Source: an uncultured bacterium (GTDB lineage: Bacteria; Bacillota_I; Bacilli_A; RFN20; CAG-826). Taken from it: DNA of 64,000 nucleotides. Where the stretch lies: contig CASERQ010000004.1 of the NCBI GenBank assembly GCA_949290395.1, positions 85,598-149,597 on the forward strand, in the 5' to 3' direction. Each line of letters begins with the position of its first letter. Positions within the stretch are counted from its first letter, which is position 1. The notes beneath the pieces are model-generated. The model did no database searches, was not told where the DNA came from, and saw only the letters and a program-made list of their open reading frames with translations. A program made the position numbers and the translations under genes. Shown here one piece after another: positions 3,794 through 64,000 of this stretch.

Positions 3794-3798
3794 CTTTT

Positions 3799-7031: not shown

Positions 7032-7181
7032 ATAATTCTGTCTTAAGCCTAGTGATTTTGTGAATAATTAAAAAGATTCCTTTTGGTACAAAAGCCTCTA
7101 TAAGAATCCTTTTTATGTTGTTACCTACAATTTTGAAACGCTGACAGCCAATTATGATAATTTTATGTTAAAAATCTGTTG

Positions 7182-7190
7182 TGGTATAAT
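7182..7190 (+). promoter_or_regulatory. Extended -10 element (TGGTATAAT) placing the TSS at or next to ATG 7197 (possible leaderless mRNA)
   Basis: TGnTATAAT at 7182-7190. No Shine-Dalgarno sequence between it and ATG 7197. Confidence 0.3.
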
Positions 7191-7196
7191 TTTCAT

Positions 7197-9071: not shown

Positions 9072-9114
9072 TTTTTTAAAAACCATGCAAAGCTTACTTA
9101 TTTAAGGAGAATTT

Positions 9115-9429
9115 ATGATTAAACAAGAAACTGAAGAAAGAATAAAAGAATTTAATAAAGTGCGTAATTGGGATGGATATCATAATGGCAAAGACCTTGC
9201 GATTTCTCTTTCTTTAGAAGCGTCAGAGCTTCTTGAGGTTTATCAATGGAGTAAGGATGATTTAGATTGTTCAAAGAAAATAGACAAGATAAAAGAAGAG
9301 TTGGCTGATGTCTTAATATATGCAATTCAGATTGCTCAAAAATACAATTTAGATATAGACGAAATTATTAATACAAAAATCGATAGAAATGCCATCAAAT
9401 ACCCAGAGAACAAGGAGAACAAATTTTAA
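9115..9429 (+). CDS. MazG-like nucleoside triphosphate pyrophosphohydrolase (small all-alpha NTP-PPase)
   Basis: 104 aa with EASELLE and EELADVLIY EExxE/D-type metal-binding helices typical of MazG/YpjD-type pyrophosphatases. RBS AAGGAGA 6 nt upstream. The stop overlaps the next ATG (TAATG). Confidence 0.6.
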   Translation: MIKQETEERIKEFNKVRNWDGYHNGKDLAISLSLEASELLEVYQWSKDDLDCSKKIDKIKEELADVLIYAIQIAQKYNLDIDEIINTKIDRNAIKYPENKENKF

Positions 9430-11318: not shown

Positions 11319-11421
11319 TATCTATTTCACCATATTGACATTCCCCTTCTTTCTTTCCATAATAATCTCAGTTTGAAAACTTTATTTCAAACTCTATAAA
11401 ATACAAAAAGGATATAGAATT

Positions 11422-13947
11422 ATGAATGAATTTATATTTAATAATTTACGTTTTGAATTACTAGATGAAGAGATAATTCATATTGAAAAAGGTAGTTCTG
11501 CAGGTTTTTTAAATGAAAACACATTTTTTATTCCTTCTAAAACTGAATTAAATAGAAGTGAATTCTTTGTTCAAGATAATGGTGACTATTTCACTCTTTT
11601 CATGAATGAATACTATCTTGTCTTCTTTAAGCGAGATGGATTAAAAGATTTAAAAGTCTACGATAAGTATGGTTCTATCTTATATACATATAAAAGAAAA
11701 GTTAATTCAGGAGAACTTCCTAGTGCAATAGACACTCCGGCTATTTTTAGTGTTCATGATAATCCTAGAATGGTATTGCCAAGTGAAGGATATTCTTCTA
11801 AATCATTCGATAAGAAAGAAAGCTTAAAAGTAGAAGAAAAAGTTGATGATGTATATCTTCTTCTTGCTAAAGGCGGAGCCGCTAAATTAAGAGAGTTATA
11901 CGTTAAACTAACAGGAAGAAGCGAACTAGTTCGCTTTAAAACCTTAGGTTTTTGGAATTCTAGATACTATAAATATAATGAAGAAAGCGCTAAAAAGATG
12001 ATTGATGATCATAAAGCACATGATATTGCTTTAGACAACATGGTCATTGATACTGACTGGCGTAAAGCTAATGATATAGGAATAGGATATGACATTGATA
12101 CAACCTTATTCCCTGATATGAAGCGCTTTTTTAAGTATGCTCACACAAAAGACGTTGAAATCATGTTTAATGATCATCCAGAACCAGTAAAAGGTGCAGA
12201 GCACGTATATAGCGAAAGCGAAGTTAGATTTAGAGAAGAAAAATTAACTTATATATTAAGTCTAGGTCTTGATTATTGGTGGTATGACCGTAACTGGATA
12301 ACTTGTCTTAAATCGCCAAGTGAAAATATTAATCCAGAAACAATGGGACAATATCTATTTACAGATATTACAAAACACTACTTTGAAGGCGTAACTAAAA
12401 ATAAGGAAATATATAAAAGACCAATAGTCATGTCTAACGTTGATAACGTACTCAATGGAACATATCTTGGTATCAAAAATTCAGCAAGTCATAGATATCC
12501 TTTCCAATGGACTGGAGATATTCAATCTTCTCTTGATTCATTAAGTAGAGAAGTTAAAAACTTAATCAAAGGATGCTCTAGTGAAATCACTTATATTAAC
12601 GCTGATATAGGAGGCCACGTAGGAAATCCTAGTAAAGAAGAATATATCCGCTGGATGCAATTTGGAGCTTTCTCTCCTATATTTAGAGTACATGCAACAA
12701 ATTGCGTTATAAGATTTCGTGAACCATGGAATTATGATGAAGAAACCTTAGATATTTCTAGAAAATATATCAATATGAGATATCGCTTAATTCCTCTTTT
12801 ATACTCAAAAGCTCATGATAACTATGAAACAGGTGAACCTTTATTTAAAGAACTTGGATTTAACTATAAGGACAATGGAAGTAAGAATAACTTCTCTGAA
12901 TATTTACTAGCAAATGATATTCTCATTTCTCCATTCTCTTTCCCTGAATCAAAGATATGTAAGAAAGATGTATATGTAGGAAAAGTAAAAGCAAGTTTCT
13001 TTAATAACACTAAATTTGAAGGAAAACCAGTTGCCACAAAAGAATACGATGAACTTAATCTTCATTTTGTAGATGAAGCGCCTATTAAAGAACTTACTCC
13101 TTATAACTATACAGTTCGCTTTGAATTTAAAGTTAAGTTTAAAGAAGATACTAAGTTAATTGTTGCTAGTGATGATGGAGCAACAGTTTATGTTAATGAT
13201 AAGCTTGTTCATGTAGATTCTTCTAGTCACGCTTTATCTCCTGCAGAAATTGGTGTCGCTAAGAAAAACGAGGTACTTAACATTAGAGTTGATTACTATC
13301 AATATGAGGGCGGAGCCCAAATATATCTAGCTGGTGTACCTTTAAAGAAAGCACTTAAGAATGCATATTTACCAAAGGATGAATGGATTGATGTATTTAG
13401 TGGCGTAGAATATAAAGGCGAAACAAAAGTCAGGAAAAACGAAGAAATCCTTGTAGAAATGCCTTTATTTATTAGAAAAGGATCTATCATTCCTCTTGTA
13501 AAAGAAAAGAACAGAGTTCTTGATTTAGATTATTCTAAACTTACTCTTGATGTATATCCATCACTCACTAGTGAAGATCATCAAGCTTTATATGAAGATG
13601 ACAATAAAACAACTGCTTATAAATATGGTAAATATAGAAAGACATATTTAGATTACTATTTTGACCATAATGAAAATGCAGGAGTAGTTCATATCTCTAA
13701 AGCTATCGGAGATTATGAAAACAAAATTAAATCAAGACACATCACTTTAAGATTTAATATCCTAGAAGGATTTGAGGGTGTAACAGGAGTTACAATAAAC
13801 GGAGAAAGCATTGAAACTAAGTTTACTAAAAAGAATCCTAAGTTAATGCCATTTAGTTATGGAAAAGCAAATAATGCTTTAGATAACTATACAGTTGAGT
13901 TTGATATTGATTTAGATAAAGAGTATTTTGTGAAGTTTTATTTTTAG
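11422..13947 (+). CDS. GH31-family glycoside hydrolase (alpha-glucosidase/alpha-xylosidase-like) with C-terminal PA14-like domain
   Basis: VIDTDW, FNDHPEP, QWTGDIQSS and ADIGGH...WMQFGAFSPIFRVH motifs characteristic of GH31. The C-terminal region has a PA14-like beta-sandwich signature (VDYYQYEGGAQIYLAG). Confidence 0.6.
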   Translation: MNEFIFNNLRFELLDEEIIHIEKGSSAGFLNENTFFIPSKTELNRSEFFVQDNGDYFTLFMNEYYLVFFKRDGLKDLKVYDKYGSILYTYKRKVNSGELPSAIDTPAIFSVHDNPRMVLPSEGYSSKSFDKKESLKVEEKVDDVYLLLAKGGAAKLRELYVKLTGRSELVRFKTLGFWNSRYYKYNEESAKKMIDDHKAHDIALDNMVIDTDWRKANDIGIGYDIDTTLFPDMKRFFKYAHTKDVEIMFNDHPEPVKGAEHVYSESEVRFREEKLTYILSLGLDYWWYDRNWITCLKSPSENINPETMGQYLFTDITKHYFEGVTKNKEIYKRPIVMSNVDNVLNGTYLGIKNSASHRYPFQWTGDIQSSLDSLSREVKNLIKGCSSEITYINADIGGHVGNPSKEEYIRWMQFGAFSPIFRVHATNCVIRFREPWNYDEETLDISRKYINMRYRLIPLLYSKAHDNYETGEPLFKELGFNYKDNGSKNNFSEYLLANDILISPFSFPESKICKKDVYVGKVKASFFNNTKFEGKPVATKEYDELNLHFVDEAPIKELTPYNYTVRFEFKVKFKEDTKLIVASDDGATVYVNDKLVHVDSSSHALSPAEIGVAKKNEVLNIRVDYYQYEGGAQIYLAGVPLKKALKNAYLPKDEWIDVFSGVEYKGETKVRKNEEILVEMPLFIRKGSIIPLVKEKNRVLDLDYSKLTLDVYPSLTSEDHQALYEDDNKTTAYKYGKYRKTYLDYYFDHNENAGVVHISKAIGDYENKIKSRHITLRFNILEGFEGVTGVTINGESIETKFTKKNPKLMPFSYGKANNALDNYTVEFDIDLDKEYFVKFYF

Positions 13948-14938: not shown

Positions 14939-17116
14939 ATGAAAAAGAATAGATTATTATTAGCTCTTTCTTTAGTTGGCTTTTTAACTGGTTGTGGTGC
15001 TCCACAAGAAAATACAGAAGGAAAAAACAGCCAAACTGAAGTCGCTAATGGAAAAGATGGAGTAGGTATTAAATCAATTACACTTACAACAAGTGAAGGA
15101 AATGTTGATACATATACAATTACATATACGAATAACACTACAACAACATTTAAAGTAACTAATGGTGTTAATGGTGAGCAAGGTATTCAAGGTGAACCAG
15201 GAGCTGATGGACATACTCCTGTTATCACAATTGGAGAAAATGGAAATTGGTTTATTGATGGCGTAGATAGTGGCGTTAGCGCAAAAGGTACACAAGGTGA
15301 ACAAGGCCCAGAAGGCCCACAAGGACCTCAAGGTGATCAAGGGGAACCTGGAAAAGATGGTAATGGTATTAAAGAAATCAAGTTAACCAAAACTGAAGGT
15401 AATGTAGATACATATACCATCTATTTTACTGATGGTACAGAAACCACATTCACAGTTACAAATGGTGCTGATGGCGAAGCTGGGATTGACGGTGAACCAG
15501 GTGAAGATGGACATACCCCTGAAATCACAATTGGTGAAAACGGAAACTGGTTTATTGATGGAGTAGATACTGGATTCTCAGCAAAAGGCACACAAGGAGA
15601 ACAAGGTGAACAAGGCCCTCAAGGCGATAAAGGTGAAGCTGGTGAAGATGGCCAAGACGGGAACGGCATTAAAGAAATTAAATTAACTAAAACTGAAGGT
15701 AATGTTGATACTTATACTATTTACTTTACAGATGGTAAAACAACAACTTTTGATATAACTAACGGAACAAGTGGAGAAGACGGAAAATCTGCATTTGAAA
15801 TATTCAAAGAATATAATCCTGATTATAAAGGCACTGAAAAAGATTGGATAAATGACATCATCAACGGTGAATTTAATAAGATTAAAGTTACTTTTGATGC
15901 AAATGGCGGAACTATTGATGGCGAAAACACTGTTGAAATTAAACAAGGGCAATCTTTAGGTGATAATCTTCCTGTTCCAACCAAACCTGGGAAAACATTC
16001 TTAGGTTGGTATACAGGATGGTCTGTGGCTGATGCAGAAGTTAACAAAATGACTCAAATTCATTCGGATTTAACATTGATTGCTAAATGGGACACGTATG
16101 ATGTTAAATTCTTGGATAAAGATGGTAATGTGTTTGAGACTAAAATTGTCAATCACGGGGATAAAGTTAGCGCGCCAGAGGATAAACCTTCATCCATTTT
16201 TGACTCCTATATTTTTTTAGAGTGGGAATATGATTTTGAAAAAATGATCTACTCCGATTTAGAAATTGAATCTTCTTGGAAGGCAAATGATGATGTTATT
16301 TTGACTTTTGGTTCTTATCCACAGTCTGTTGTAAAAGATAACGAGTTAAAAAAGCAACTTAGCAATTTAGAAAATGGACAAGTTTCAGGAAGCATTTTGG
16401 AATTTGATTTTAACGATGATGGTAACAAAGAAAAATATTTGTGCCAAAATGTTGAAAACGAGCGTTTGTCGAATGATAACATGAAAATTGAGAAAGGTAT
16501 AAATTATTTCCTATTTGAACCAATTCGCTGGACTGTTTTGCGCAAGGATGCTTCCGCATATTCATTGGTTACCGAAAGTGTTATCGATGTGCAATATTGG
16601 AATACAGAGTTTTATGAATATAAGGACCCTGAAACTTTTGAAGTAGAACAAATTTATAATAATTATGAAAAATCGACTATAAGAAAATGGTTGAATGATG
16701 AATTTTTAAATTTGGCATTTAATGATGTTGAGAAAAATACGATTTTAACAACTGAAGTTGATAATAGCCCAACTTCAACAAATAACGAGGAAAATAAATA
16801 TTGTTGTAATAATACAATTGATAGAGTTTATCTCTTAAGTAAGCAGGAAATCACTTCTGATCCTTTTTCTAATAGTGTAAGTCAAAAAGATCCCAAACGA
16901 ATAGGCAAAACTACTGATTATGCTAGATGTGTAGCAACAGAAGAAATGTTAATGGATATTGAAACATATGGAAATATAGCGTGGTGGACAAGATCTCCAA
17001 GTGCAAAGTTTAATTATAGTTCTACATGTGTGTGGAATATAGGAAGTGTAGGAGAAAGTTTTAACGTTAATTTTCATAGATATGGAGTTAGACCAGCATT
17101 AAAGGTTTCTATTTGA
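14939..17116 (+). CDS. Surface lipoprotein with collagen-like GXY triplet repeats, repeated GNVDTYTI..TDG..T.F.VTNG modules, a Listeria-Bacteroides (Flg_new) repeat and a conserved C-terminal domain
   Basis: Signal peptide with lipobox LTGCGAP. Runs of G-x-y triplets (GEQGIQGEPGADG, GTQGEQGPEGPQGPQGDQGEPGKDG). Repeated motif HTPVITIGENGNWFIDGVDSG. Flg_new-like VTFDANGGT...GKTFLGWYT. C-terminal region ends WWTRSP...GVRPALKVSI. Confidence 0.7.
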   Translation: MKKNRLLLALSLVGFLTGCGAPQENTEGKNSQTEVANGKDGVGIKSITLTTSEGNVDTYTITYTNNTTTTFKVTNGVNGEQGIQGEPGADGHTPVITIGENGNWFIDGVDSGVSAKGTQGEQGPEGPQGPQGDQGEPGKDGNGIKEIKLTKTEGNVDTYTIYFTDGTETTFTVTNGADGEAGIDGEPGEDGHTPEITIGENGNWFIDGVDTGFSAKGTQGEQGEQGPQGDKGEAGEDGQDGNGIKEIKLTKTEGNVDTYTIYFTDGKTTTFDITNGTSGEDGKSAFEIFKEYNPDYKGTEKDWINDIINGEFNKIKVTFDANGGTIDGENTVEIKQGQSLGDNLPVPTKPGKTFLGWYTGWSVADAEVNKMTQIHSDLTLIAKWDTYDVKFLDKDGNVFETKIVNHGDKVSAPEDKPSSIFDSYIFLEWEYDFEKMIYSDLEIESSWKANDDVILTFGSYPQSVVKDNELKKQLSNLENGQVSGSILEFDFNDDGNKEKYLCQNVENERLSNDNMKIEKGINYFLFEPIRWTVLRKDASAYSLVTESVIDVQYWNTEFYEYKDPETFEVEQIYNNYEKSTIRKWLNDEFLNLAFNDVEKNTILTTEVDNSPTSTNNEENKYCCNNTIDRVYLLSKQEITSDPFSNSVSQKDPKRIGKTTDYARCVATEEMLMDIETYGNIAWWTRSPSAKFNYSSTCVWNIGSVGESFNVNFHRYGVRPALKVSI

Positions 17117-20864: not shown

Positions 20865-22967
20865 ATGCGTAAAAGAAGATTACTTTTAGCTCTTGCTTTA
20901 GTTGGCGTTTTAACAGGGTGCGGAGCACCACAAGAAAATGCGGAGAATAATAAGAATAATCAAAACACTCAGACAGAACCTAGTAATGGAAAAGATGGAG
21001 TTGGAATTGTTTCAATAAATATTACATCTACTGAAGGTAATTCTGATATCTATACAATTACATATACTGATGGAAGTACATCTAATTTTAAAGTTACAAA
21101 TGGAAAAGATGGCGCACAAGGTATCCAAGGGGAGCCTGGTGAAGATGGGCGTACTCCTGTTATTTCTATTGGAGAAAATGGAAACTGGATTATTGATGGC
21201 GTTGATACTGGGTTTAGTGCTCAAGGAGAAAAAGGCGAAACTGGAAATGGGATTGAACTCATTGAAAAAGATAAAAGTGAAGGAAATGTTGATACTTATA
21301 TAATTTATTTCACTGATGGCACAACAAGTTCCTTCACTGTTACAAATGGTGAAAATGGCGAACAAGGTATACAAGGAGAACCAGGTAAAGATGGACATAC
21401 TCCAGTAATCACTATTGGATATAATGGAAACTGGTTTATCGATGGAGAAGATACGGGAGTTTCTGCTAAAGGCCCTGAGGGCGAAAAAGGTGATCAAGGT
21501 GAAGCAGGTAAAGGAATTTATAATATTGTTAAAGATCACACAAATGGAAACGTTGATACATATATTATTTATTTTACTGATGGAAGTCATATTTCTTTTG
21601 ACATAACTAATGGGGAAAATGGAGAAGATGGCCACTCTGCTTTTGAAATATTTAAAGAATATTATCCTGAATATGAAGGAAGTGAAAAAGAGTGGATTGA
21701 AGATATAATTAACGGCAAGTTTAATAAAGTTACTGTTACTTTTGATTTAAATGGTGGAATTTATGAAGGAGAAGAAAAAATTCAAATTCTTAAAGGTCAA
21801 TCAATCGGAGACAATTTGCCAGTTCCAGAGAAAAAAGGGAAAAAATTTTTAGGTTGGTATACTGGATGGACTCCAAATGATGTTCAGGTAACTAAACTTA
21901 CCCCTATAAATTCCGATATTACTTTAGTTGCTAAATGGGACAGCTATGATATTAAATTTTTAGATAGAGATGAAGAAGTTTTTTTCGAAACTACTATAAA
22001 TCATGGTGAAAAGCTTGCAAAACCTAGCTCAAATCCAGAAAGTTTAGGTGATGCTTACACTTTCATTAAATGGAATTATGATTTTGATGATCCTGTTTAT
22101 AGCGATTTAAATATTTCATCGGTTTGGACAACAAATGATGAAGTTATTATGACTTTTGGAACCTATCCGCAATCGGTTGTCAGTGACAAAGAATTAAAAG
22201 AAAAACTTTCTTCTTTAGAAAACGCTGATATAGAAGGAACAGTATTGAAATATGATTCTGATAATGATGGTGAAAAAGAAAGATATATGGTCGCAAGAGG
22301 CGGCAGTGATGATATTATCGCTGACGATGGAAGCGTAATTGAATACGGCATAAATTACTTTAAATATGAACCAATAGAGTGGCGTATTTTGAGAAAAAGT
22401 ACTGAAGAGTATTTTCTTGTTTCACACAAAGTGATTGATTTTCAAGTTTTTGAAAAAGATGGATATGTTTATGAGGATCAAGAAACACATTTAAGTGAAC
22501 ATATAAAAAATGATTACTCAAAGTCTGATATAAGAGAATGGCTTAATAATGTCTTTCTAGTCAATGCCTTTTCTTACAGTGAACAAGAAAGAATTTTGAT
22601 CACAAATGTTGAAAATAACCAGGATTTGTCGACAGATGAAAAAAATGGTTATGTATATGAAAACACAGAGGACAAAGTATTTTTACTTAGTAAAAAAGAC
22701 GTTGAAACATACAGCTTTTCATCTGATTCAGAATTGAAAAAAGAAGATAGGGTTGCTAGAGCAACCGATTATTCAAAAATTTTAAGCAGTGGTGGAATGT
22801 CAATAGATGATGGTTCGTATGGTAACTGTGATTGGCGGACTAGGACGCCTAGACCTTCAAATTTAGGCTATGATTTTACTTATTACGTTTTTCAAGACGG
22901 CGGAGTCCTCTATAATGACACAGACATTAAAAAGGGTGTCCGCCCAGCCATTCGAATTGAACCCTAA
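20865..22967 (+). CDS. Paralogous collagen-like surface lipoprotein (GXY repeats + Flg_new repeat + conserved C-terminal domain)
   Basis: Lipobox LTGCGAPQEN identical in style to 14939..17116. GXY runs (GAQGIQGEPGEDG; GPEGEKGDQGEAGKG). HTPVITIGYNGNWFIDGEDTG. VTFDLNGG...GKKFLGWYT. C-terminus WRTRTP...GVRPAIRIEP. Confidence 0.7.
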   Translation: MRKRRLLLALALVGVLTGCGAPQENAENNKNNQNTQTEPSNGKDGVGIVSINITSTEGNSDIYTITYTDGSTSNFKVTNGKDGAQGIQGEPGEDGRTPVISIGENGNWIIDGVDTGFSAQGEKGETGNGIELIEKDKSEGNVDTYIIYFTDGTTSSFTVTNGENGEQGIQGEPGKDGHTPVITIGYNGNWFIDGEDTGVSAKGPEGEKGDQGEAGKGIYNIVKDHTNGNVDTYIIYFTDGSHISFDITNGENGEDGHSAFEIFKEYYPEYEGSEKEWIEDIINGKFNKVTVTFDLNGGIYEGEEKIQILKGQSIGDNLPVPEKKGKKFLGWYTGWTPNDVQVTKLTPINSDITLVAKWDSYDIKFLDRDEEVFFETTINHGEKLAKPSSNPESLGDAYTFIKWNYDFDDPVYSDLNISSVWTTNDEVIMTFGTYPQSVVSDKELKEKLSSLENADIEGTVLKYDSDNDGEKERYMVARGGSDDIIADDGSVIEYGINYFKYEPIEWRILRKSTEEYFLVSHKVIDFQVFEKDGYVYEDQETHLSEHIKNDYSKSDIREWLNNVFLVNAFSYSEQERILITNVENNQDLSTDEKNGYVYENTEDKVFLLSKKDVETYSFSSDSELKKEDRVARATDYSKILSSGGMSIDDGSYGNCDWRTRTPRPSNLGYDFTYYVFQDGGVLYNDTDIKKGVRPAIRIEP

Positions 22968-51074: not shown

Positions 51075-51102
51075 AGAGCTAGATTGATTTCTAGCTCTTT
51101 TT
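51075..51102 (+). terminator. Rho-independent terminator after rpoC
   Basis: AGAGCTAG-attgattt-CTAGCTCT hairpin plus TTTT. Confidence 0.8.
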
Positions 51103-51449
51103 ATGTGGGAAAATTTGAAGCTTTGAAAAGAGGTAGTTGATTTTAAAAGAAAATATAAATTTAGAATTTCTACTTCCAAAAAACTGCAATTTCGAACAAT
51201 TTTTTCGAGGTGTGCCACACGTTGGCATTTTTAGAAAATATTTCATTGAAAATTTTTCGTTTTTACCCTTTTGCCTAAAAACCACGCAAAATTACACTAT
51301 TTTTTCTTTTTATTACTTAAATTAATGAAATATTTTTATTTTATAGTGTCATATCTTGCATATTAAACTTTAGGACAAATTTAAAATAAGAAATAAGTGG
51401 AAATATTATATATAATATTTAGGCTATTTAAGATCCATGTGAAGGAGTT

Positions 51450-54400
51450 ATGTTTATGAAGAAAAGAAAAACGATGTTAGCTTGTAGCTTATTATTTGCT
51501 GGCTTAGTTACTACAGGTTTAACAGGATGTAGTCCTGAGGATTTGCCACTCGAAGATGTTGATACTTATAGCATCAAACTCTCTTATGATGAAACAATGG
51601 GTGTTGTTACAGCCGATAAAAAGTCCGGTTTTGTAATTGATGGAGAAACAGTTACTGTTAGTGTTCATGCCAATAGTGGTTATAAAGTAACTGGTGTTTC
51701 AATTAATGGAGAAAGTCAAGATATCACCTATCTTTCTTATACATTCTCTCCAAAAGTTGGCGAAAATGAAGTTATTGTTAACTTTGAAAAAGATGTTAAA
51801 GAAGATGAAGACGATGATGACGTTATTAAAACTTTCAAAATTGTAACTGAATCTGATGCTTATGGATTTGTTTCAACTGATAGAAATAGTGGAAATGTTG
51901 GAGAAACCGTAAACATAAATTATGTTCCTAATAATGGATATGAACTTGCTAAAGTTTTTATTAATGATATTGAACAACCTTTATACATTAATAATTTCAA
52001 ACCAGTTGAAGGTTTAAATACAATTAGAGCTGAATTTAAAGAAGTTGAAGTTAATACTGAAGAAACTTTTACAATTAAGACTGAAACAGATGGTAAAGGC
52101 AAAATTACAGTAGAGAAAGAAGAAGGATATGTTGGCGAAACAGTTCCTTTTAGGGTCTATCCAAAAGCTGGATATCATGTTTCATCCATTGTAATTAATG
52201 GTGTAAGTGTTGGAACAGATACTTATAGTTTTAAACCAATTGGTGGAGAAAATATAATTTCTGTTTTCTTCTCAAATGGTTCTCAAGAAGGTGTTGTTGT
52301 TGAAGAAGTTACAACTTACATTATTCAAACTGCCGACGACGGAAATGGTGAAGTTTACGTTGATAAAACAAGAGGCGATGTTGGAGATACAGTTAATATT
52401 ACTGTTGATCCACACGAAGGTTTTATTTTAGAAAAGATTGTTATTAATGGTATGGATTCTGGTAAGATTACTTCTTTCCAACCAGGACCTGGATTAACTA
52501 GAGTTGATGCTATCTTTAAATCCGAATATACTCCTGATCCAACTGTAAGAACATTTAATGTTGAAGCAACAAGTGGTGAAAACGGAACAGTTGAATTAAG
52601 TGCAACCGAAGGTATTATTGGAACAAGTGTATTTATCTATCCAAAACCAGATAAAGGTTATCAAGTTGCTAAGATTGTTGTAAATGGGATTAATTTCCCA
52701 ACTTATCAAAGAAACTTTGAACCAAAAGAAGGTTTAAATACTGTTGAAGTCTATTTTGAACCAGAAGAAATGGATGAAGATTTCAGTGTAAAAATTACAA
52801 AAGTTGGAGAAGGCGATGTCTTTATTGATAAGACAAAAGGAAAAGCTGGCGAAACAGTTAATTTAACGATTGAACCAGACGCAGAATTTGAAATTTATTC
52901 TATTAAAATTAATGGTGAACTTGTCGACAACTCAACAAGATCATTTGAAACAGTTCCTGGATTAAACGAAATTTATGTCGAATTTATCGTTAAAAACTTT
53001 GAAGAGCATGAATTTACTGGAATTACTCCTGTTGGAAAGAGCGATATAAGAACAAGCGAAGAAGCTGCTGAAATTATCGCTAGTGCATTCGATATTTATC
53101 TCGAAGATAATGAAAATATTACAGTTGATGAATTTAAGACATGGTTAGTCAACGCAGATATTTATAACAATTTTGTTCTTAAATATGGATACACACTTGA
53201 ATCTCTTGAAGCAGGTCTTAACTATATTGTTAATGATGGTCTCTATGATTTAATGTTTGCTCCAACAAATGGTGTAAGTTATGACAACCTCAAATCATTA
53301 GCTAACTATATTTATGATGGTGTTAGCAAATTCAGCCTTGAAGAGTTTGCTGGTTATACAGGTTTATTTACATTCATTGGTGTAATCAACGGATTCAACG
53401 ATCTTGATTTAGATAATCTTTATAATTTAGCACTTCAAAATAGCTTAGATATCGCTCAAGAAAGTATACTTGATGTTGATGCTAAAAACTATGTCAATGA
53501 ACTTATCTACAACTCAACTTTCAATTTAGAGACAAGTTTTGCAGAGTATTTAGTTTATTCCGATGTAGTTTCAGAACTTATCTATAGACCATTTAACGCA
53601 ATTGCAGGCTCTTATACAAAGGATGAAATTTCCGAAGTACTAGCTAAAGGTATTGAATTTGTTAAGAGTTTAAGTGGTGAAGAAACTGACCTTAAGATTA
53701 CCGATCAATTCTATATGGAAATTGCTAACTTAGTTTCTAGAATTTTCGATAAGAATTCATTTAGTAAAGAAAGTTTTGCTAAGATTGGTGAAAAATTAGC
53801 AAATGCTAAAGATCCATTCGAAAGCATTATGAATGTCTTACCATATGCTGAAAATAATAGATACTTTGGAGCATTAAAAGATGCTGCTGTATTATTAAAA
53901 GATAATAGCGAAAGAGCTTATTATTTCTTCAAGACAATTGGAAGATTTGCAACTAAACTTCAACCAAAAGATATTAGCAAGATTGAACTTGCTTTAATTG
54001 AACCAAATACAACTCAAGAAACAAAATATGCAAAAGTATTTGTTTATGTTTCTAGAGTTATTGCTGATGCAATTGATGAATTAAGCTTACAAGGCGATGA
54101 TGTCCGTCACATCTTAGCTTTATCTGGTGATTTTGTTACTAAATTAAAAGAAATTATTCTTTCTGGTAATACAAATGGAGTCATTGAAGCTAATACGATT
54201 GACATCAAGTTACTTATTGATAACATTTATTCAGCTTATACAACAAACCCAGAAAAATTAACTGAAAGCCAAGTTGCAAGTTATTCACAAGCTTATACAA
54301 GATTTATCAACATGTTTAGACCTATTGCTAAAGAAGATGCAGTTTATAACATTGATTTTGATAAATATTATAAAGTTGGTGAAGCTTTAAAACTTACAAT

Positions 54401-54761
54401 TACTGATAAAGATGGAAATGATGTAACAAGTGAAGCAAAAGTTGAAAACTTTGATACATCTAAACTTGGCTATAGAAAAGTAAGAATTGTTTTACCTGAT
54501 GATTCAATCATTTACTATAGTTACTTTGTATCAAAGAGTGGTGAATATATTGAAATTGATACTCAATATTTCTATCTCAATGATGATCCAGATTTAACAT
54601 TTAACGTTCTCGTTCATAATTCTGACAACCCTGCTGGTAGTTACAAGAAGTTCTCAGATTATGAACATGGAACAATTGATACTTCAAAAGAAGGAACTTT
54701 CGCAAGTTGGGTAAAAAATGCGGAAGGTGATTATTATTTCTTTACATATATTGTAGAATAA
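51450..54761 (+). CDS. Large surface lipoprotein with about 7 tandem ~90-aa beta-rich (Ig-like) repeats and a ~560-aa C-terminal alpha-helical domain
   Basis: Signal peptide with lipobox LTGCSPED. Repeating pattern T(F/Y).I.TE.D..G.V.....G.VGETV...V.P..GY.V..I.INGV......Y.F.P..G.N.I...F recurs about 7 times between aa 40 and 610. Confidence 0.65.
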   Translation: MFMKKRKTMLACSLLFAGLVTTGLTGCSPEDLPLEDVDTYSIKLSYDETMGVVTADKKSGFVIDGETVTVSVHANSGYKVTGVSINGESQDITYLSYTFSPKVGENEVIVNFEKDVKEDEDDDDVIKTFKIVTESDAYGFVSTDRNSGNVGETVNINYVPNNGYELAKVFINDIEQPLYINNFKPVEGLNTIRAEFKEVEVNTEETFTIKTETDGKGKITVEKEEGYVGETVPFRVYPKAGYHVSSIVINGVSVGTDTYSFKPIGGENIISVFFSNGSQEGVVVEEVTTYIIQTADDGNGEVYVDKTRGDVGDTVNITVDPHEGFILEKIVINGMDSGKITSFQPGPGLTRVDAIFKSEYTPDPTVRTFNVEATSGENGTVELSATEGIIGTSVFIYPKPDKGYQVAKIVVNGINFPTYQRNFEPKEGLNTVEVYFEPEEMDEDFSVKITKVGEGDVFIDKTKGKAGETVNLTIEPDAEFEIYSIKINGELVDNSTRSFETVPGLNEIYVEFIVKNFEEHEFTGITPVGKSDIRTSEEAAEIIASAFDIYLEDNENITVDEFKTWLVNADIYNNFVLKYGYTLESLEAGLNYIVNDGLYDLMFAPTNGVSYDNLKSLANYIYDGVSKFSLEEFAGYTGLFTFIGVINGFNDLDLDNLYNLALQNSLDIAQESILDVDAKNYVNELIYNSTFNLETSFAEYLVYSDVVSELIYRPFNAIAGSYTKDEISEVLAKGIEFVKSLSGEETDLKITDQFYMEIANLVSRIFDKNSFSKESFAKIGEKLANAKDPFESIMNVLPYAENNRYFGALKDAAVLLKDNSERAYYFFKTIGRFATKLQPKDISKIELALIEPNTTQETKYAKVFVYVSRVIADAIDELSLQGDDVRHILALSGDFVTKLKEIILSGNTNGVIEANTIDIKLLIDNIYSAYTTNPEKLTESQVASYSQAYTRFINMFRPIAKEDAVYNIDFDKYYKVGEALKLTITDKDGNDVTSEAKVENFDTSKLGYRKVRIVLPDDSIIYYSYFVSKSGEYIEIDTQYFYLNDDPDLTFNVLVHNSDNPAGSYKKFSDYEHGTIDTSKEGTFASWVKNAEGDYYFFTYIVE

Positions 54762-54796
54762 ACAAGCATCTGCTTTGAGACCAAGGGGAGGCATTA

Positions 54797-56779
54797 ATGG
54801 GAATTGTACTATTTATAATTTATTTAATTTTGTGTGCGGCAATTTATTGTCTCTTCCTTTTCATATTTCGTGTTAAGTACGCGAGATATTATAAAAAAGA
54901 TATATGTATAGATAGCGATAACGAATCATATGCAGTTTATGAAGTAGAAGATAGACGGAAACCATTTATTAGTGAATATGTAGTTTATACCGCTGATGAT
55001 TACCGTTTTCTCAAAATGGAGATTACAGAAAAGGTTGAATACATAAACATCAATATAATCTGCTATGAAGGCAAAAGAATTAAAAAGATTATCAATTTCT
55101 TAAACGAAGTTGATAGTAAACAAGATCATTACATAATTAAGCTTCCTGATAATATTGATGGAGTTAGATTAAATGTAACTGAATGTAATGGTCAAATATA
55201 TGGAAGTGATGGGGTAGCTAAAAAGAACTACCTTATCCCTGCTATTATATCTTCTGTATTAATGGGCCTTGTAGCCTTTTCTTTGCTTTTTGCATTTAGA
55301 GCATGCATGGTTGATTTCCATAATGATTTCTTTGATTGGGACTATGTCTATAGAGTTATCTATTTTGAACCTTGGATCTATGTAATAGGTGCAGTCTGTG
55401 CCTTAGTTTTTGGAGTTTTAATGTTTTTAATATTATTTATTCCAAATTCTAAAAAATATGAAAAAGCTCAATTTAATAAAATCAAGAAACTTAATATTGA
55501 AAAGGTAATTCGCTTAAAGCTTAAAAAAGTTAAGACTAGACAAGGGAATTTCCTTTTTTACGTTAAGCCAAAATGTAAGAGAAAATATAAGTTAAAAAGC
55601 GCAAAAATTATAGTTCCTTTTTATGATGCTGATGGCAATTTACTTGGAACAAGTAACATCATGATCAAGAAAAGACTCAGAAAATATTTCTTAACATCAA
55701 ATGCCGCTTTTGCAAGTTTTAAACCTGAATACATCGCGGCTGACTTTAAGAAAATTTATTTTAAAAACGGCACTTTTAGAAGGAGAATTTCTAAAAAAGG
55801 CGTTTATACTTCTTTCTTACAACCATATGGCGTCAAAAAAGTTCGTGTCCTTTTTATAGTTGCTTGCTTAGTAACAAGTGCTTATTCAATTTATACATAT
55901 TTCAATTTAACTTCGATTAATACAAGTATGTCTGATTTTGAATTTGTTTATGCTGATGAATCGACAAAAGATGCTTATGCAATCGCAAAATATAATGGTA
56001 AAAGCAGTAAACTTGTAATTCCTGAAAGTTTTAATGATTTGCCAATTGTAAAGGTCAATAGAGGGGCTGTACAAAATAACTTATATGTTGATGAAGTTTA
56101 TTTTAGTGGCGAAATTGAAATTGAACCTTATGCATTTACAAATTCTTATAACATTAAAAAAATCGATTTCACAAACGTTACTATAATCGGGGAACATGCT
56201 TTTAGCGGTTCGAGAATTAGAGAAGTTGTAATTGATCACGAAATAACTATTGAAGATGAAGCTTTTAGAGGAAATCAATTCCTAAGAAAAGTTATCATTA
56301 ACGCTGACGCCGGAGCAACCATTGAATCAAATGCTTTCGGAAGAACTGAAATTGATTATCTTGAAATTCATCCAAATGGAAATTACATTTCTAAAGGTGC
56401 TTTCTTAAATCTTAAAACTGATAAAGGATACATTTTCCAAGGTGCTGGCATTAATTACAGCAACTATATGAGTTATGTTGTAAGCAAGAATGTAAAATGC
56501 CAAAACACTTGTGTTCACGACAACAACTCTTTCTTTGTTGATGAAAGCGGGCATTTACACGAAGATAAGAGCTTCACTGTAAAAGAAACCATTAGAGAAG
56601 CAACATGTGTTAGTAATGGAATTAACGAAGTTACTTGTAATTATTGCGGTTCTATTTATAACGTTGGAATTCCGGCTGATAAAAATAAGCATGATTATGG
56701 TCTAGATGGAAATTGTATACATTGTGGAAGAAGAGATCCAAATTATGTTGAGCCTGTTATTGAAGAGGGGGATGAATAA
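54797..56779 (+). CDS. Polytopic membrane protein with extracytoplasmic BspA-type leucine-rich repeats and a C-terminal Cys-rich module
   Basis: Four hydrophobic TM segments. LRR-like units (IGEHAFSGSRIREVVIDHEITIEDEAFRGNQFLRKVIIN). C-terminal CQNTC...CVSNG...CNYCGS...CIHCG cysteine cluster. Strong RBS GGGGAGG. 1-nt overlap (TAATG) with the next gene. Confidence 0.6.
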   Translation: MGIVLFIIYLILCAAIYCLFLFIFRVKYARYYKKDICIDSDNESYAVYEVEDRRKPFISEYVVYTADDYRFLKMEITEKVEYININIICYEGKRIKKIINFLNEVDSKQDHYIIKLPDNIDGVRLNVTECNGQIYGSDGVAKKNYLIPAIISSVLMGLVAFSLLFAFRACMVDFHNDFFDWDYVYRVIYFEPWIYVIGAVCALVFGVLMFLILFIPNSKKYEKAQFNKIKKLNIEKVIRLKLKKVKTRQGNFLFYVKPKCKRKYKLKSAKIIVPFYDADGNLLGTSNIMIKKRLRKYFLTSNAAFASFKPEYIAADFKKIYFKNGTFRRRISKKGVYTSFLQPYGVKKVRVLFIVACLVTSAYSIYTYFNLTSINTSMSDFEFVYADESTKDAYAIAKYNGKSSKLVIPESFNDLPIVKVNRGAVQNNLYVDEVYFSGEIEIEPYAFTNSYNIKKIDFTNVTIIGEHAFSGSRIREVVIDHEITIEDEAFRGNQFLRKVIINADAGATIESNAFGRTEIDYLEIHPNGNYISKGAFLNLKTDKGYIFQGAGINYSNYMSYVVSKNVKCQNTCVHDNNSFFVDESGHLHEDKSFTVKETIREATCVSNGINEVTCNYCGSIYNVGIPADKNKHDYGLDGNCIHCGRRDPNYVEPVIEEGDE

Positions 56780-58074
56780 TGAATATTAGCTTTACTTCGC
56801 CAATTGTCGTATTTATATTCGCTTTGGTTATATTCTTACTTATTGGTATTATTGCCGTTTTAATTATCGTTAGAGAATACAAAAACACTAACACCGTTTT
56901 AATCAAAGAAAATAGAAGCAAAAGAAGCTTAAATATCGGACAGGAAGCAATCAGAAAAGCCTCAGAAAAAGATCCTACCTCTGTTAACAAGAATTTAGAA
57001 AGATTTGCTGAACTTTTAATCTTAGATAACGAAGCCGAAAAGATTAAATCTGTAACCTATGATAAAGTTAGTGATCTTGAAAAGTTTACAAATGACTTTA
57101 GAAATTATTGTGCTTCTAAAAAAGGTTTGTTCTATACAATTGATGATTTAAGAGCATTCATTTCTAACCTTGCAACAACCAAAATTATGATTCTTCAAGG
57201 TATGTCTGGAACAGGTAAAACTTCCATTGCACTAGCCTTTGAAGATTTTATTGGAAACCAAACGACTGTTATTGCTGTTCAACCTATGTGGAAAGAAAGA
57301 AGTGACTTAATTGGTTACTTTAATGAATTTACGAAAAAGTTTAACGAAACTCCTCTTTTAAAAGAGTTATATCGTTCTAATTTTACAGATCAAATTTTTA
57401 TCATCGTTTTAGATGAGGTCAACATTGCTCGTATTGAGTATTATTTTGCTGAGTTCTTATCTCTTCTTGAATATCCTAACATTAATCAAAGAACTCTTGA
57501 AATTACAAATGACTCTTGGCCAAAAGATCCAAAACTTTTAAAAGATGGTAGACTTCAAATTAAACCTAATGTTTATTTCTTAGGCACTGCAAATAACGAT
57601 GAATCAACATTCTCTATTTCAGATAAAGTTTACGATAGAGCGATGATTTTAAACCTTGATAAAAAGGCTGAAGCTTTTGAGGGTGTACCAACAGAAAGAG
57701 TTAGAATTTCTAATGAAAACTTTGAAGAATTAGTAAAAGCCGCGCAAAACTCATATCAAAATTATGATTCTTTAAATAAAAAGATTGATAAAATCAATGA
57801 ACTTTTAATTGATTCATTTGAAATTAATTTTGGTAACCGTATGGTAAACCAAATGAGACTTTATGTTCCAGTTTATGTTGCTTGTGGTGGAGACGAAGAT
57901 ACTGCATTTGACGATTTTGTATGTAAAAAGATATTAAGAAAATTAGAAGGGAAAGATGCGTTAAAAGTAAATAACGCAATTGACCCATTCATTGAAAAAT
58001 TAAATAACGAGTTTGGAAAAGATAAAATGTTTTTCTCAAAAGAATATTTAACTAAGTTCCAAATTAAAGGATAA
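56779..58074 (+). CDS. Membrane-anchored McrB-family AAA+ GTPase-like protein (single N-terminal TM helix)
   Basis: N-terminal TM (IVVFIFALVIFLLIGIIAVLIIV). P-loop IMILQGMSGTGKTS. McrB-specific VQPMWKERSDLIGYF (compare McrB VQFHQSYSYEDFIQGY). Walker B/NRA motif IFIIVLDEVNIAR. Sensor region VYFLGTANNDESTFSISDKVYDRAMIL. Confidence 0.65.
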   Translation: MNISFTSPIVVFIFALVIFLLIGIIAVLIIVREYKNTNTVLIKENRSKRSLNIGQEAIRKASEKDPTSVNKNLERFAELLILDNEAEKIKSVTYDKVSDLEKFTNDFRNYCASKKGLFYTIDDLRAFISNLATTKIMILQGMSGTGKTSIALAFEDFIGNQTTVIAVQPMWKERSDLIGYFNEFTKKFNETPLLKELYRSNFTDQIFIIVLDEVNIARIEYYFAEFLSLLEYPNINQRTLEITNDSWPKDPKLLKDGRLQIKPNVYFLGTANNDESTFSISDKVYDRAMILNLDKKAEAFEGVPTERVRISNENFEELVKAAQNSYQNYDSLNKKIDKINELLIDSFEINFGNRMVNQMRLYVPVYVACGGDEDTAFDDFVCKKILRKLEGKDALKVNNAIDPFIEKLNNEFGKDKMFFSKEYLTKFQIKG

Positions 58075-58078
58075 GTAA

Positions 58079-59671
58079 ATGGATAGAAGCGGACGTAGAT
58101 ATACTCAATATAAGAATTTTAAAATCTATAGCGACTCGGTTTCAAAAAACGAGAAACTTTTGTCTGCTTACGATAAGATTAAAAGTTCAACAAAGAGCAA
58201 AAACCAACTTAAATCAGTTGTTAATGATATTGTAATCGAAGAAGATTGGGTCAACACAATTGAAGAACTTTTACCTTATGTTTCTAGTGCAATTAATGAA
58301 GAAAGAAGATTCATTAGAAATGAAAGCGAAACTCTTCCAATTGAAAAAACAAGAAGAGTAACTAAAGAATCAATTGTTAATCTTTCAATGAATTCTCAAA
58401 ACATCCGTAAGATTAAAGAAAATGATGAAATCGAACCTTCTAAACTTCTTGTCGTTGAAAAATTAGATGACTACTCAATTTATGAAAATAAATTTTTAGT
58501 CTTCTTACTTAAATTTTTAAAATCTTTTATTGAGATTCGTTTTGAAAAGATTAGAGAAGCTAAATCTTTACTCGAAACAAGAACTAAACTTAATGATAAA
58601 GTTAATCTTTACCGCAATACTATTTCATACAAGTTAGAAATTGTTGACGAAAGATATGGCGATTTAAACCTTGAAGAAAATGACAAAAACTACGATGTAA
58701 TAAGAAAAATCAGAAACATCGAGGTTCAAATTAATCATCTTTTAAAAACAGATCTTATTGAACAAGTTAGTAAAACGCCTCCAATCAGGCAGCCAATTCA
58801 AAGAACTAACTTACTTAAAAATGATATTAACTTTTCTAAATGTCTTAAGCTTTATGACTTCATAAGTAGTTATGCAAAACCAGGTTATACCATTACACCT
58901 GTTGAAACCTTAAAAGAAGAACTTTCTCAAGATTATTTAGACTATTTCTCTAAGATTCCAACTCTTGTTGCATTCTTATCGTATGCTGAAACAAAAGGTG
59001 TTTATGAACTTTACGCAAAAGAATTTGAAATTGAAAAAGAAGAAAATAGAGTAGCTGAGCTTGTTGAAATTAATCGTAAAATTTATGAAATGCTTGGCAC
59101 TAAAGAAGTAGATTTTAAACTTGTTTATGAGTTTGTTATTGGGATGCAAGAAGAAAGAATTCGTCTTAATAAAACCATAGAAGAACTTAAAGTTAATCAC
59201 GAAAAAGAAATCGAAGAACTTAAGACTGCTTTTGAAAATGAGAAGAACGAAATCTTTGATAAGCATCGTGAAGAAGTTAATAAGTTAAATGAAGATATTT
59301 CTAACTTAGAGAAAGAAAACGCTGCAAAACTGGACTTAATTAATAAAAATTTTGATGATTATCGTTTAGATGCAGAAAAGAAAATTAAAGATTTATCTGA
59401 TCAAAACGAGGAACTTACGAGTCGTTTGACGGTCGCTCAAATCACAAATGGAAAAGCCAAATTTAATGAAAACATTACCGAAAAAGAGTTCGACGAACTT
59501 GAAAGACAAAAATTTGCTTTTGATAAGTATTTTGAGAAAACTTGGAAAAGACTTAAAAAAGAAATTATGAAGAATCGTAAAGCTGAAGCAATTAATGAAG
59601 TTAAAAATGCAAGAGCTAAAAAGAAAGAGAAGAAAGGAGTAGAAAGTGAACAAGAACAGGAAGTTAAATAA
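58079..59671 (+). CDS. Coiled-coil protein (possible divergent McrC-like partner or adaptor; no clear nuclease motif)
   Basis: 530 aa. N-terminal ~300 aa globular region, then a ~200-aa heptad-rich, Glu/Lys-rich coiled coil (ELKVNHEKEIEELKTAFENEKNEIFDKHREEVNKLNEDISNLEKENAAKLDL...). 4-bp gap from the upstream gene, and the downstream gene overlaps it by 26 bp. Confidence 0.5.
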   Translation: MDRSGRRYTQYKNFKIYSDSVSKNEKLLSAYDKIKSSTKSKNQLKSVVNDIVIEEDWVNTIEELLPYVSSAINEERRFIRNESETLPIEKTRRVTKESIVNLSMNSQNIRKIKENDEIEPSKLLVVEKLDDYSIYENKFLVFLLKFLKSFIEIRFEKIREAKSLLETRTKLNDKVNLYRNTISYKLEIVDERYGDLNLEENDKNYDVIRKIRNIEVQINHLLKTDLIEQVSKTPPIRQPIQRTNLLKNDINFSKCLKLYDFISSYAKPGYTITPVETLKEELSQDYLDYFSKIPTLVAFLSYAETKGVYELYAKEFEIEKEENRVAELVEINRKIYEMLGTKEVDFKLVYEFVIGMQEERIRLNKTIEELKVNHEKEIEELKTAFENEKNEIFDKHREEVNKLNEDISNLEKENAAKLDLINKNFDDYRLDAEKKIKDLSDQNEELTSRLTVAQITNGKAKFNENITEKEFDELERQKFAFDKYFEKTWKRLKKEIMKNRKAEAINEVKNARAKKKEKKGVESEQEQEVK

Positions 59672-61004
59672 ACTTATTTTGATTTTGTGTGCTATAGAAC
59701 TTTGTCTTATTCTATTCTTTTTAGGCTACTTACTTGTTTATAGTGCTGTTATTGGTGATGATAGCTTAATTACATCTCCAGCTTTATATATGGCAGCAAT
59801 CTTTATTTCTATTACTCCTATTGGAATGCTTATTTATTACTTTGGAATAAGAAATAGAAAAATTACTATTTTTAAATTTGAAGTTGATGAACAAAAAGAA
59901 ACCAATAAGAGTAAAAAAGTCATTAAAGACGAAAAAAGAAAAAGATTTAGTGAACTTTTAAAAATTGATGATGCAACTGAGGAAGTTGATTTTGATGATG
60001 TTTTTGATTTAAAAGTATTTACTGAACAATTTAGAAATTTCTGTGCATCTAAAAAGAAACTTTATTATACAGAAGATGATGTTCGCTCATTTATTACAAA
60101 CTTGTTAACTAGTAAAATCATGATTCTTCAAGGTATGTCTGGAACTGGTAAAACTTCAATCGCATTAGCTTTTGAAGATTTTGTTGGGAACCCAACAACT
60201 GTTATTCCAGTTCAACCTGCATGGAAAGAAAGAAGTGATTTAATTGGCTACTTCAATGAATTCACTAAAAAGTTTAATGAAACTCCATTGCTTAAAGAAC
60301 TTTATCGTTCCAACTACTCTGACAAAATATTCATTATTGTTTTAGACGAAATGAATATTGCTCGTGTCGAATATTATTTTGCTGAATTTTTATCTTTACT
60401 TGAATATCCAAATGAAGATCAAAGAACAATTGAAGTCACTAATGATTCATGGCCAAAAGATCCTCGTTTAATTAAAGAAGGAAGAATGCAAATTAAGCGA
60501 AATGTCTATTTTTTAGGGACAGCAAATAACGATGAATCTACTTTCTCAATCTCTGATAAAGTTTATGATCGTAGTATGATTTTAAACTTAAATAACAAAG
60601 CAACTAGCTTTGAAGCAGAAGAACAAGGAAGAGTTAAAATTTCTAATGAAAATTTTGAAAACCTTGCAAAAGAGGCATTAAATTCTTATAAAAACTACGA
60701 TGGTTTAAGAAAAAAGATTAATGCAATTAACGATATTTTAGTTGAACACTTCATGATAACTTTTGGTAATCGTATGGTTAACCAAATGTTAAGTTATGTT
60801 CCTATATATGTTGCGTGTGGTGGAGATGAAGATGAAGCTTTTGATGACTTTGTTTCTAAGAAGATTTTAAGAAAACTTGATGGCAAAGACGTCTTTAAGG
60901 TTTCTAGTGCTCTCCCTTCTTTCCTTGATTCGCTCAACCATGAATTTGGTCGCGATAAAATGGTAAAATGTAAGAAGTATCTTAAGAAATTTGAAATCAG
61001 GTAA
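59646..61004 (+). CDS. Membrane-anchored McrB-family AAA+ GTPase-like paralog (two N-terminal TM helices)
   Basis: GTG start 7 nt after AAAGGAG. Two TM helices. Core from aa ~125 to the C-terminus is about 80-85% identical to 56779..58074 (IMILQGMSGTGKTSIALAFEDF, VQPAWKERSDLIGYF, IFIIVLDEMNIAR, VYFLGTANNDESTFSISDKVYDRSMIL). Confidence 0.65.
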   Translation: MNKNRKLNKLILILCAIELCLILFFLGYLLVYSAVIGDDSLITSPALYMAAIFISITPIGMLIYYFGIRNRKITIFKFEVDEQKETNKSKKVIKDEKRKRFSELLKIDDATEEVDFDDVFDLKVFTEQFRNFCASKKKLYYTEDDVRSFITNLLTSKIMILQGMSGTGKTSIALAFEDFVGNPTTVIPVQPAWKERSDLIGYFNEFTKKFNETPLLKELYRSNYSDKIFIIVLDEMNIARVEYYFAEFLSLLEYPNEDQRTIEVTNDSWPKDPRLIKEGRMQIKRNVYFLGTANNDESTFSISDKVYDRSMILNLNNKATSFEAEEQGRVKISNENFENLAKEALNSYKNYDGLRKKINAINDILVEHFMITFGNRMVNQMLSYVPIYVACGGDEDEAFDDFVSKKILRKLDGKDVFKVSSALPSFLDSLNHEFGRDKMVKCKKYLKKFEIR

Positions 61005-61009
61005 AAGTT

Positions 61010-64000: not shown

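Follow-up and report, generated by a model that had tools for sequence, protein, structure and literature searches.

McrB proteins assemble into nucleotide-dependent hexamers. The N-terminal domain of the partner protein McrC enters the McrB ring and stimulates hydrolysis, and dimerization of McrC links two McrB rings (PMC11090510; structures 6hz4 and 6ut5). A census of McrBC systems (Bell et al. 2024; PMC11090510) recognized an NxD branch of the McrB GTPases, defined by an NxD motif followed by Glu, of which no member has been characterized according to that source. The CoCoNuT and CoCoPALM groups fall in this branch; the latter is defined by its association with signal-peptidase-family or pilus-assembly genes and was named but not analyzed (PMC11090510). 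Here we describe a string of genes on the + strand, labelled g1 to g7, downstream of rpoC in a 64,000-nucleotide stretch (the window) of contig CASERQ010000004.1 from an uncultured member of the Bacillota. As judged from its sequence, the window holds most of a nuclease-less, membrane-tethered McrBC-type cassette with surface proteins. The cassette is a widespread and apparently undescribed variant of the McrBC-type machine in gut Firmicutes.

The cassette resembles the McrBC systems of Escherichia coli and Thermococcus in having an AAA_5 NTPase with a Walker A motif, a Walker B motif, and a sensor-1-type N..D signature, and in having a partner with a DUF2357/McrC N-terminal domain encoded by an adjacent gene. 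Nevertheless, there are several differences between the two. The McrC homologue of the cassette has a C-terminal coiled coil instead of a PD-(D/E)xK nuclease, and its McrB homologue has transmembrane (TM) helices instead of a DNA-binding N-terminal domain. Two McrB paralogues flank the McrC homologue, and their signature is NxD(E) where that of McrB is NxxD. Finally, the cassette is always linked to extracytoplasmic leucine-rich repeat (LRR) and transglutaminase-fold proteins and lies in a housekeeping context.

A genome scan for relatives of g5, using one genome per species, detected at least 593 matching stretches. Open reading frames were called in 80 returned loci and labelled with profiles of each cassette protein; the compared loci are designated L001-L090. 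A constant gene order on one strand was found in essentially every locus of sufficient length, consisting of an McrB-like protein of ∼440 amino acids (aa), an McrC-N/coiled-coil protein of 500-800 aa, a second McrB-like protein of ∼470 aa, and two transglutaminase-fold proteins, the second being the larger. The order and strand were alike in L005-L086, L089, and L090. The order, strand, and tight spacing of the core, g3-g7, were kept in ∼60 loci that were long enough to judge, and in related Bacilli loci homologues of g2-g7 kept their order and strand. The conserved cassette thus comprises an LRR protein, a one-TM McrB-like protein, an McrC-N/coiled-coil protein, a two-TM McrB-like protein, and two anchored transglutaminase-fold giants. 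Chance juxtaposition of these genes is excluded. The hosts are represented by gut and rumen metagenome-assembled genomes from Clostridia, Bacilli, and Mollicutes-like lineages, and include Lachnospiraceae, Christensenellaceae, Oscillospiraceae, Pumilibacteraceae, uncultured Bacilli, Anaeroplasmataceae, Acholeplasmatales, and Haloplasmataceae. The closest relatives are from Candidatus Onthovivens, with 64-78% identity. When grouped at 50% identity, the g4 family by itself forms 1041 clusters (E ≤ 1e-30).

The g3 (56779-58074; 431 aa) and g5 (59646-61004; 452 aa, GTG start) products are paralogous proteins with Pfam AAA_5 matches at E = 1.7e-8 and 1.3e-7, respectively. In phmmer searches the best solved relative was E. 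coli McrB (6hz4, E = 2e-4 with g5), with McrB structures 6hz4, 6ut6, and 7vsr matching at 2e-4 to 5e-4. Both proteins contain a Walker A motif GMSGTGKT, a Walker B motif IIVLDE, and the signature GTANNDE (positions 141, 208, and 269 in g3; GTANNDE at 291 in g5). Both Walker motifs are invariant across 26 family members. GTANNDE aligns with the McrB segment GLMNTADRS, which contains the NTAD signature, and is the shortened NxD-plus-Glu form. On this signature, g3 and g5 are assigned to the NxD branch of McrB. Both also match the AAA region of the PADLOC candidate model PDC-M26A (3.7e-44 for g3 and 8.3e-48 for g5).

The NTPase domain is predicted to be cytoplasmic in both paralogues, following a single N-terminal TM helix in g3 and an N-terminal two-TM hairpin in g5. 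This difference is conserved, with one TM helix in the upstream paralogue at 48 of 52 loci and two in the downstream paralogue at 62 of 63. The g3 and g5 genes have 76% nucleotide identity over 907 nucleotides (nt). Many Clostridia and Anaeroplasmataceae loci have an McrB-like pair sharing 1.1-1.2 kb of 99-100% identical DNA that covers the soluble domain only (L019, L052, L068, L069, and L076; for example, 6162-7673 versus 9527-11089 in L068), and the 5′ parts of these genes that encode the membrane anchors differ. The pattern looks like concerted evolution by gene conversion. Because the DNA for the soluble domains is alike and the TM counts are conserved, the motors appear to be kept interchangeable by gene conversion and the anchors to be kept different by selection. 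Two anchors combined with similar soluble domains would fit mixed rings with two kinds of membrane connection.

Two clean orthologous clades, one for the upstream and one for the downstream McrB-like protein, had been expected. This arrangement was rejected, as paralogues from the same locus are often nearest relatives, which we attribute to gene conversion. In L085, from the cultured mouse-gut isolate Pumilibacter muris CLA-AA-M08, the McrB-like domain lies on a 1057-bp contig with a coverage of 761, which is probably a collapsed repeat of two near-identical McrB paralogues. This isolate could act as an experimental host.

Many cassettes contain a third paralogue of ∼1100 aa, composed of GH3 N- and C-domains, an Fn3-like domain, two TM helices, and an McrB-like domain (L027 7265-10633, L062 2663-5809, L006 2975-6631, and L090 6502-10008). 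In many Clostridia the McrB-like domain of this protein is often degenerate, and often just its C-terminal lid can be recognized. The GH3 part would be cytoplasmic, since the protein has two TM helices and no signal peptide.

The g4 product (58079-59671; 530 aa) is a cytoplasmic protein that has no TM helix and no Pfam match of its own. The first-pass annotation, made from the nucleotide sequence of the window, had described it simply as a coiled-coil protein encoded after both GTPases. The gene in fact lies between g3 and g5, and the protein is the McrC partner minus its nuclease. It has an N-terminal DUF2357-type domain (residues ∼1-300) with an invariant Tyr-135-Glu-136-Asn-137 in the alignment, followed by a long C-terminal coiled coil (residues ∼309-529) after which there is nothing further. 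Matches to DUF2357, the McrC N-terminal domain, were obtained for seven of 28 g4 homologues, with a best E-value of 1.2e-10. In an AlphaFold2 model with a mean predicted local distance difference test (pLDDT) score of 80.8, an α/β N-terminal domain is followed by ∼220 residues of continuous helix; the model has helices at 284-529 and a single strand between residues 200 and 300. McrC is the closest solved fold. We found no PDDEXK Pfam match in g4 or its homologues and no conserved D...(D/E)xK motif in their alignment; by contrast, a plasmid relative carries PDDEXK_7. We conclude that g4 is homologous to McrC but has a coiled coil where McrC has its nuclease. The cassette core is therefore an McrBC derivative, with g4 as the nuclease-less McrC partner of the McrB-like proteins.

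Other searches with g4 gave little. A PDB sequence search with g4 alone produced no matches, and a profile of the g4 N-terminal domain produced nothing below E = 0.1 against the PDB. A full-length g4 profile retrieved coiled-coil noise alone, such as ATP synthase b and apolipoprotein. An hhalign comparison of the N-terminal domain profile with a plasmid McrC-like nuclease protein was weak (E = 0.0076, probability 5%), pairing YEN(K/R) with PENR.

The end of the window truncates the g6 gene (61010-64000). In this region the window sequence is matched without difference by metagenome scaffolds L001-L004, and the full-length protein of 1038 aa was taken from L001. It has an N-terminal signal anchor, repeat domains, and two Transglut_core domains. 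PF01841 matched two stretches of g6 (1.6e-30) and also the g7 protein (2.4e-15). Among solved structures, Pseudomonas aeruginosa TgpA (6g49, 1.3e-7) is closest to the first g6 core. In the alignment with TgpA (GFCAHYA versus GNAENFA) Ala occupies the nucleophile position, giving Ala-His-Asp in the first core (residues ∼451-525). The second core (residues ∼769-844) has Asp-Tyr-Asp, with neither Cys nor His, and the third core, in g7, has Asn-His-Asp and so is also Cys-less.

Elsewhere, 51 of 66 transglutaminase cores keep a Cys-His-Glu/Asp triad in a family alignment of non-redundant loci. The earlier description of a double pseudo-transglutaminase is thus accurate for both g6 cores but is not a defining trait of the family. 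There are no intact triads in the nearest relative, L009, and one each in L007 and L008. Since most cores in other loci keep Cys-His-Glu/Asp, the pseudo-enzyme state has arisen by recent local loss. The ectodomains of most of the family look like competent transglutaminase or protease enzymes. In the window organism, with all three cores Cys-less, a binding or scaffold role alone can remain. In the Anaeroplasmataceae the usual places downstream are taken by two giant proteins (L036 7188-17150 and L068 11107-21080), one of which has an antigen I/II C2-like domain.

In the g7-type protein the TM helix is preceded by a cytoplasmic N-terminal segment of ∼25 residues, which is conserved between Bacilli and Clostridia. 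The segment contains the motif M-[LR]-[YT]-[DE]-x-Y-x-x-K-[IML]..K[FH]R, found within the first 60 residues in L005-L040 and at 14483-14570 of L001. The first transglutaminase protein has a short basic stub alone and does not contain this motif. The cytoplasmic machine could use the conserved g7-type segment as a handle.

The g2 product (54797-56779; 660 aa) is a polytopic membrane protein with four TM segments and a Pfam LRR_5 match (E = 5e-14). Two β-sandwich domains (residues ∼37-130 and ∼238-319) are predicted to be cytoplasmic by the positive-inside rule and the AlphaFold2 model, and a BspA-type LRR (residues ∼380-560) followed by a Cys-rich tail is predicted to face outward. A Foldseek search with the model (pLDDT 69.5) gave TpLRR (6mlx) as the top match and recognized no part of the protein other than the LRR. 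Full-length g2 homologues lie directly upstream of the core in a Bacilli subclade, and in at least 18 loci from Clostridia that position is occupied by other LRR_5 proteins. Elsewhere in the window, a 774-aa protein (31124-33448) has a very strong BspA-type LRR_5 match (E = 4e-101).

The g1 gene (51450-54761) encodes a lipoprotein of 1103 aa with the lipobox LTGC (Cys-27), six Flg_new_2 (InlB B-repeat) units at residues 39-512, and a mostly helical C-terminal part of ∼590 aa. The repeat units are clear at the protein level and too diverged at the DNA level. The g7 protein carries two repeats of the same type. Homologues of g1 were found only in L007-L009, the three nearest relatives, and g1 is a lineage-specific accessory gene. 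Two paralogous surface-type proteins of the window (14939-17116 and 20865-22967) contain Flg_new and DUF6273, the first with collagen-like repeats as well. This genome is thus rich in surface proteins of the repeat type, so that finding g1 beside the cassette carries less weight.

The window has a G+C content of ∼30%, with nearly every gene on the + strand. The rpoB and rpoC genes end at 51065 and are followed by an intrinsic-terminator-like hairpin and T-run on the + strand (51075-51098; 9-bp stem with four GC pairs, then TTTTATG). The hairpin closes the rpoBC unit and is the upstream boundary of the cluster. A 350-nt AT-rich spacer separates it from g1, and a search of Rfam with the 385-nt leader between rpoC and g1 found nothing credible. 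A weak candidate promoter on the + strand (TTTAAA-18-TATTAT, 51380-51409; nine of 12 positions matching) lies ∼40 nt 5′ of the g1 start. Promoter-like matches in this AT-rich region were not commoner than in shuffled sequence, and thus prove nothing either way. There are 35 nt between g1 and g2, g2 and g3 overlap by 1 nt, g3 and g4 are 4 nt apart, g4 and g5 overlap by 26 nt, and g5 and g6 are 5 nt apart; no intergenic terminator was found inside the cluster. On scaffolds L001-L004, g7 (1378 aa) begins 1 nt after g6, beyond the window end, and is followed by an ABC-FtsX fusion gene, which is left out of the system because it is not conserved with the cassette.

These data bear out much of the first-pass annotation. 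Its six co-directional, tightly packed genes after rpoC, its upstream terminator, and its LRR/Cys-rich membrane protein (g2) were all recovered. The proposal of a single transcription unit agrees with the conserved g2-g7 or g3-g7 order and the lack of an internal terminator, but the unit is not six genes ending at 64000 because g7 continues the string and is itself universal in the cassette. The expectation that the six families would co-occur holds for the core in ∼60 loci and fails for g1, which is a repeat lipoprotein as proposed but not a member of the conserved cassette.

Among described systems the cassette is nearest to those of the NxD branch and, going by the published description, most resembles the CoCoPALM group. 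It shares with the NxD branch the NxD-plus-Glu signature, the fusion of a coiled coil to the McrC homologue, and occurrence in the Bacillota. In CoCoPALM the N-terminal region fused to the GTPase contains a TM segment and is FtsB-like (PMC11090510). Whereas CoCoNuTs have PD-(D/E)xK and HEPN nucleases and RNA-binding domains, the cassette has none of these. No signal-peptidase or pilus-assembly gene is a conserved neighbor in ∼80 cassette loci, which is a difference from CoCoPALM. The NxD signature, N-terminal TM helices, and McrC coiled coil are all present in the cassette, and no FtsB/DivIC Pfam match was obtained at E < 0.1. The census does not mention transglutaminase, LRR, or GH3 partners (PMC11090510).

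No NCBIfam family cut-off was reached by any of the six window proteins, and in PADLOC the AAA domains alone matched, with no model match for g1, g2, g4, g6, or g7. PDC-M26A has 724 positions, of which only the AAA part is matched by g3, g5, and a 720-aa relative in L070, and PDC-M26 is a candidate rather than a validated system. No publication text for PDC-M26 was found. Likewise, no report linking McrB/DUF2357 proteins to transglutaminase-fold, LRR, or GH3 partners was found in the literature covered, which did not extend to subscription journals; this accords with the earlier statement that the module has no described counterpart.

We consider it somewhat better than an even prospect that the cassette encodes a cytoplasmic machine that is driven by NTP and linked through the membrane with surface proteins. 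By analogy with McrBC, the soluble domains of g3 and g5 would form rings, probably of mixed composition, at the inner membrane face. The g4 N-terminal domain would plug into the ring and activate hydrolysis, and its coiled coil would take over from the lost nuclease dimer in bridging or spacing. The nucleotide cycle would then be relayed through the TM anchors and the g7-type cytoplasmic segment to the surface proteins, where it may control the assembly, clustering, conformation, or turnover of an LRR/transglutaminase surface complex.

Four points weigh against a machine of this kind. The homologies and gene linkage are observations, but the ring, its activation, and the trans-membrane relay, like every other step of the mechanism, we infer from homology and gene order. 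The McrBC relatives are overwhelmingly defence systems, and the ATPases match a PADLOC candidate model. All three transglutaminase cores of the window organism are Cys-less, and any activity of the wider family may be inapplicable to it. Finally, Pfam Transglut_core is undetectable in the Anaeroplasmataceae giants, and the transglutaminase fold is for this reason possibly not essential to the system.

A more far-reaching form of the proposal, which we regard as doubtful, is that with this cassette monoderm and wall-less gut bacteria possess an unrecognized class of mechanochemical machine spanning the envelope, in which an McrBC-derived NTPase ring and a coiled-coil strut, located on the cytoplasmic side, work on giant LRR/transglutaminase-fold surface proteins. 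Such a machine would act via the TM helices and the conserved cytoplasmic handle of the surface proteins, and would have a housekeeping role, supplying inside-out force or assembly in adhesion, remodelling of the surface, or movement. In concept it would be comparable to TonB/Mot or to the Mycoplasma gliding apparatus, built from restriction-enzyme parts.

The main alternative to a surface-coupled machine is that the cassette is an anti-phage or conflict system, an McrBC-derived immune module sited at the membrane. The LRR and transglutaminase ectodomains might sense or attack the invader, or the TM helices of the NTPases might be an abortive-infection effector after ring assembly. Descent from McrBC is consistent with such a role, as are the matches of g3 and g5 to PDC-M26A (1e-44 to 1e-48), the description of the NxD branch as defence systems (PMC11090510), and the recurrence of LRR domains and transglutaminase-like peptidases in immune systems (PMC3710099). 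The closest annotated relatives are also plasmid-borne, being two-gene pairs of an AAA protein and a DUF2357/PDDEXK_7 nuclease. Tandem Schlafen-type helicase genes occur in the same window, though ∼40 kb away.

Against a defence role, no nuclease or other cytoplasmic effector was found in ∼80 loci, and the g4 and transglutaminase proteins have no PADLOC match. Clustering of all unlabelled neighboring open reading frames of 86 loci yielded no recurrent neighbors except LRR_5 proteins, GH3-TM proteins, and two small families that are lineage-specific and lack Pfam matches. The flanking genes are housekeeping genes that differ by lineage (rpoBC in the window, mraZ-rsmH in L089, prs and opp in L005, ferritin in L006). 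Similarity follows taxonomy, which suggests vertical inheritance. Plasmid and phage collections contain no close copies, the best match having 35% identity over the AAA domain only. The synteny does not vary between classes, in contrast to the modular shuffling that defence islands typically show. On balance we think a defence function unlikely.

In L089 (413-4230), from a Bacilli metagenome-assembled genome, the cassette opens with its LRR gene and comes directly after mraZ, rsmH, and a gene for 75 aa, with which the division/cell-wall cluster begins. L070 contains a minimal two-gene relative (8921-12680) with no transglutaminase genes, in which a 720-aa protein (TM, PT-repeat, TM, McrB-like; PDC-M26A match 3e-45) is followed by a 530-aa DUF2357/coiled-coil protein; this pair may be an evolutionary link from defence-type NxD McrBC pairs to the cassette. 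The Schlafen-type genes of the window (7179-9071 and 9429-11318) encode tandem ∼630-aa paralogues of the Schlafen group 3/DUF2075-type helicases (E = 2e-72 and 1e-87), which may be of defence type and are apparently unrelated to the cassette.

The first-pass annotation had compared the locus with the MoxR-AAA+/VWA(DUF58)/transglutaminase triad, of the type found in Bacillus YeaC-YeaD-YebA and in the Pseudomonas TgpA operon, and we also considered whether the cassette is a divergent member. In both, an AAA+ ATPase gene is coupled to an adjoining gene for an anchored extracytoplasmic Transglut_core protein, the function of both is poorly understood, and no solved structure is nearer to the first g6 core than TgpA. 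However, the ATPases are duplicated McrB-type proteins, as the annotation itself had recognized, matching AAA_5/McrB with the NxD motif and not MoxR AAA_3, which is absent from the Pfam matches. An McrC-like activator takes the place of the VWA/DUF58 adaptor, and VWA/DUF58 is absent from all seven proteins, from the rest of the window, and from the conserved neighbors at related loci, in line with the annotation's own finding of no VWA. A single anchor at the N terminus and giant ectodomains with repeats characterize the transglutaminase proteins, in place of the multi-TM architecture of TgpA. Membership of the triad is thus contradicted at the family level already and is very improbable, and the resemblance is an analogy only. 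Least probable of all is that these are unrelated neighbors, with surface-protein genes beside a decayed restriction system; LRR_5 and Flg_new-type surface proteins are common in the genome, g1 is not conserved beyond close relatives, and the transglutaminase cores of the window are catalytically dead, but order, strand, and tight spacing recur in ∼60 long loci of different classes, the NTPase motifs are invariant in both paralogues, gene conversion keeps the paralogues alike, and the g7-type protein has a conserved cytoplasmic motif.

Other genes of the window include a sugar-utilization cluster (110-7031) with rhamnosidase-like, fucose-isomerase-like, and FGGY kinase genes, and a gene for a GH31 protein with a PA14 insert (11422-13947). 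These genes are consistent with a gut glycan-foraging organism.

McrBC is the textbook DNA-restriction motor. Here its motor-activator pair is membrane-bound, has no nucleic-acid-handling parts, and has a fixed place beside genes for giant enzymes or adhesins of the cell exterior; hundreds of gut Firmicute species carry it, among them Mollicutes-like lineages with reduced genomes. The cassette provides a handle on abundant unannotated genes of gut metagenomes that are labelled "AAA family ATPase," "hypothetical," or "transglutaminase domain." In one lineage the catalytic Cys has been lost repeatedly, and the two NTPase paralogues undergo gene conversion; both are natural evolutionary experiments on which parts matter. 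If the coupling is real, a defence motor would have been exapted for envelope biology; alternatively, the cassette would represent a new strategy of immunity at the cell surface.

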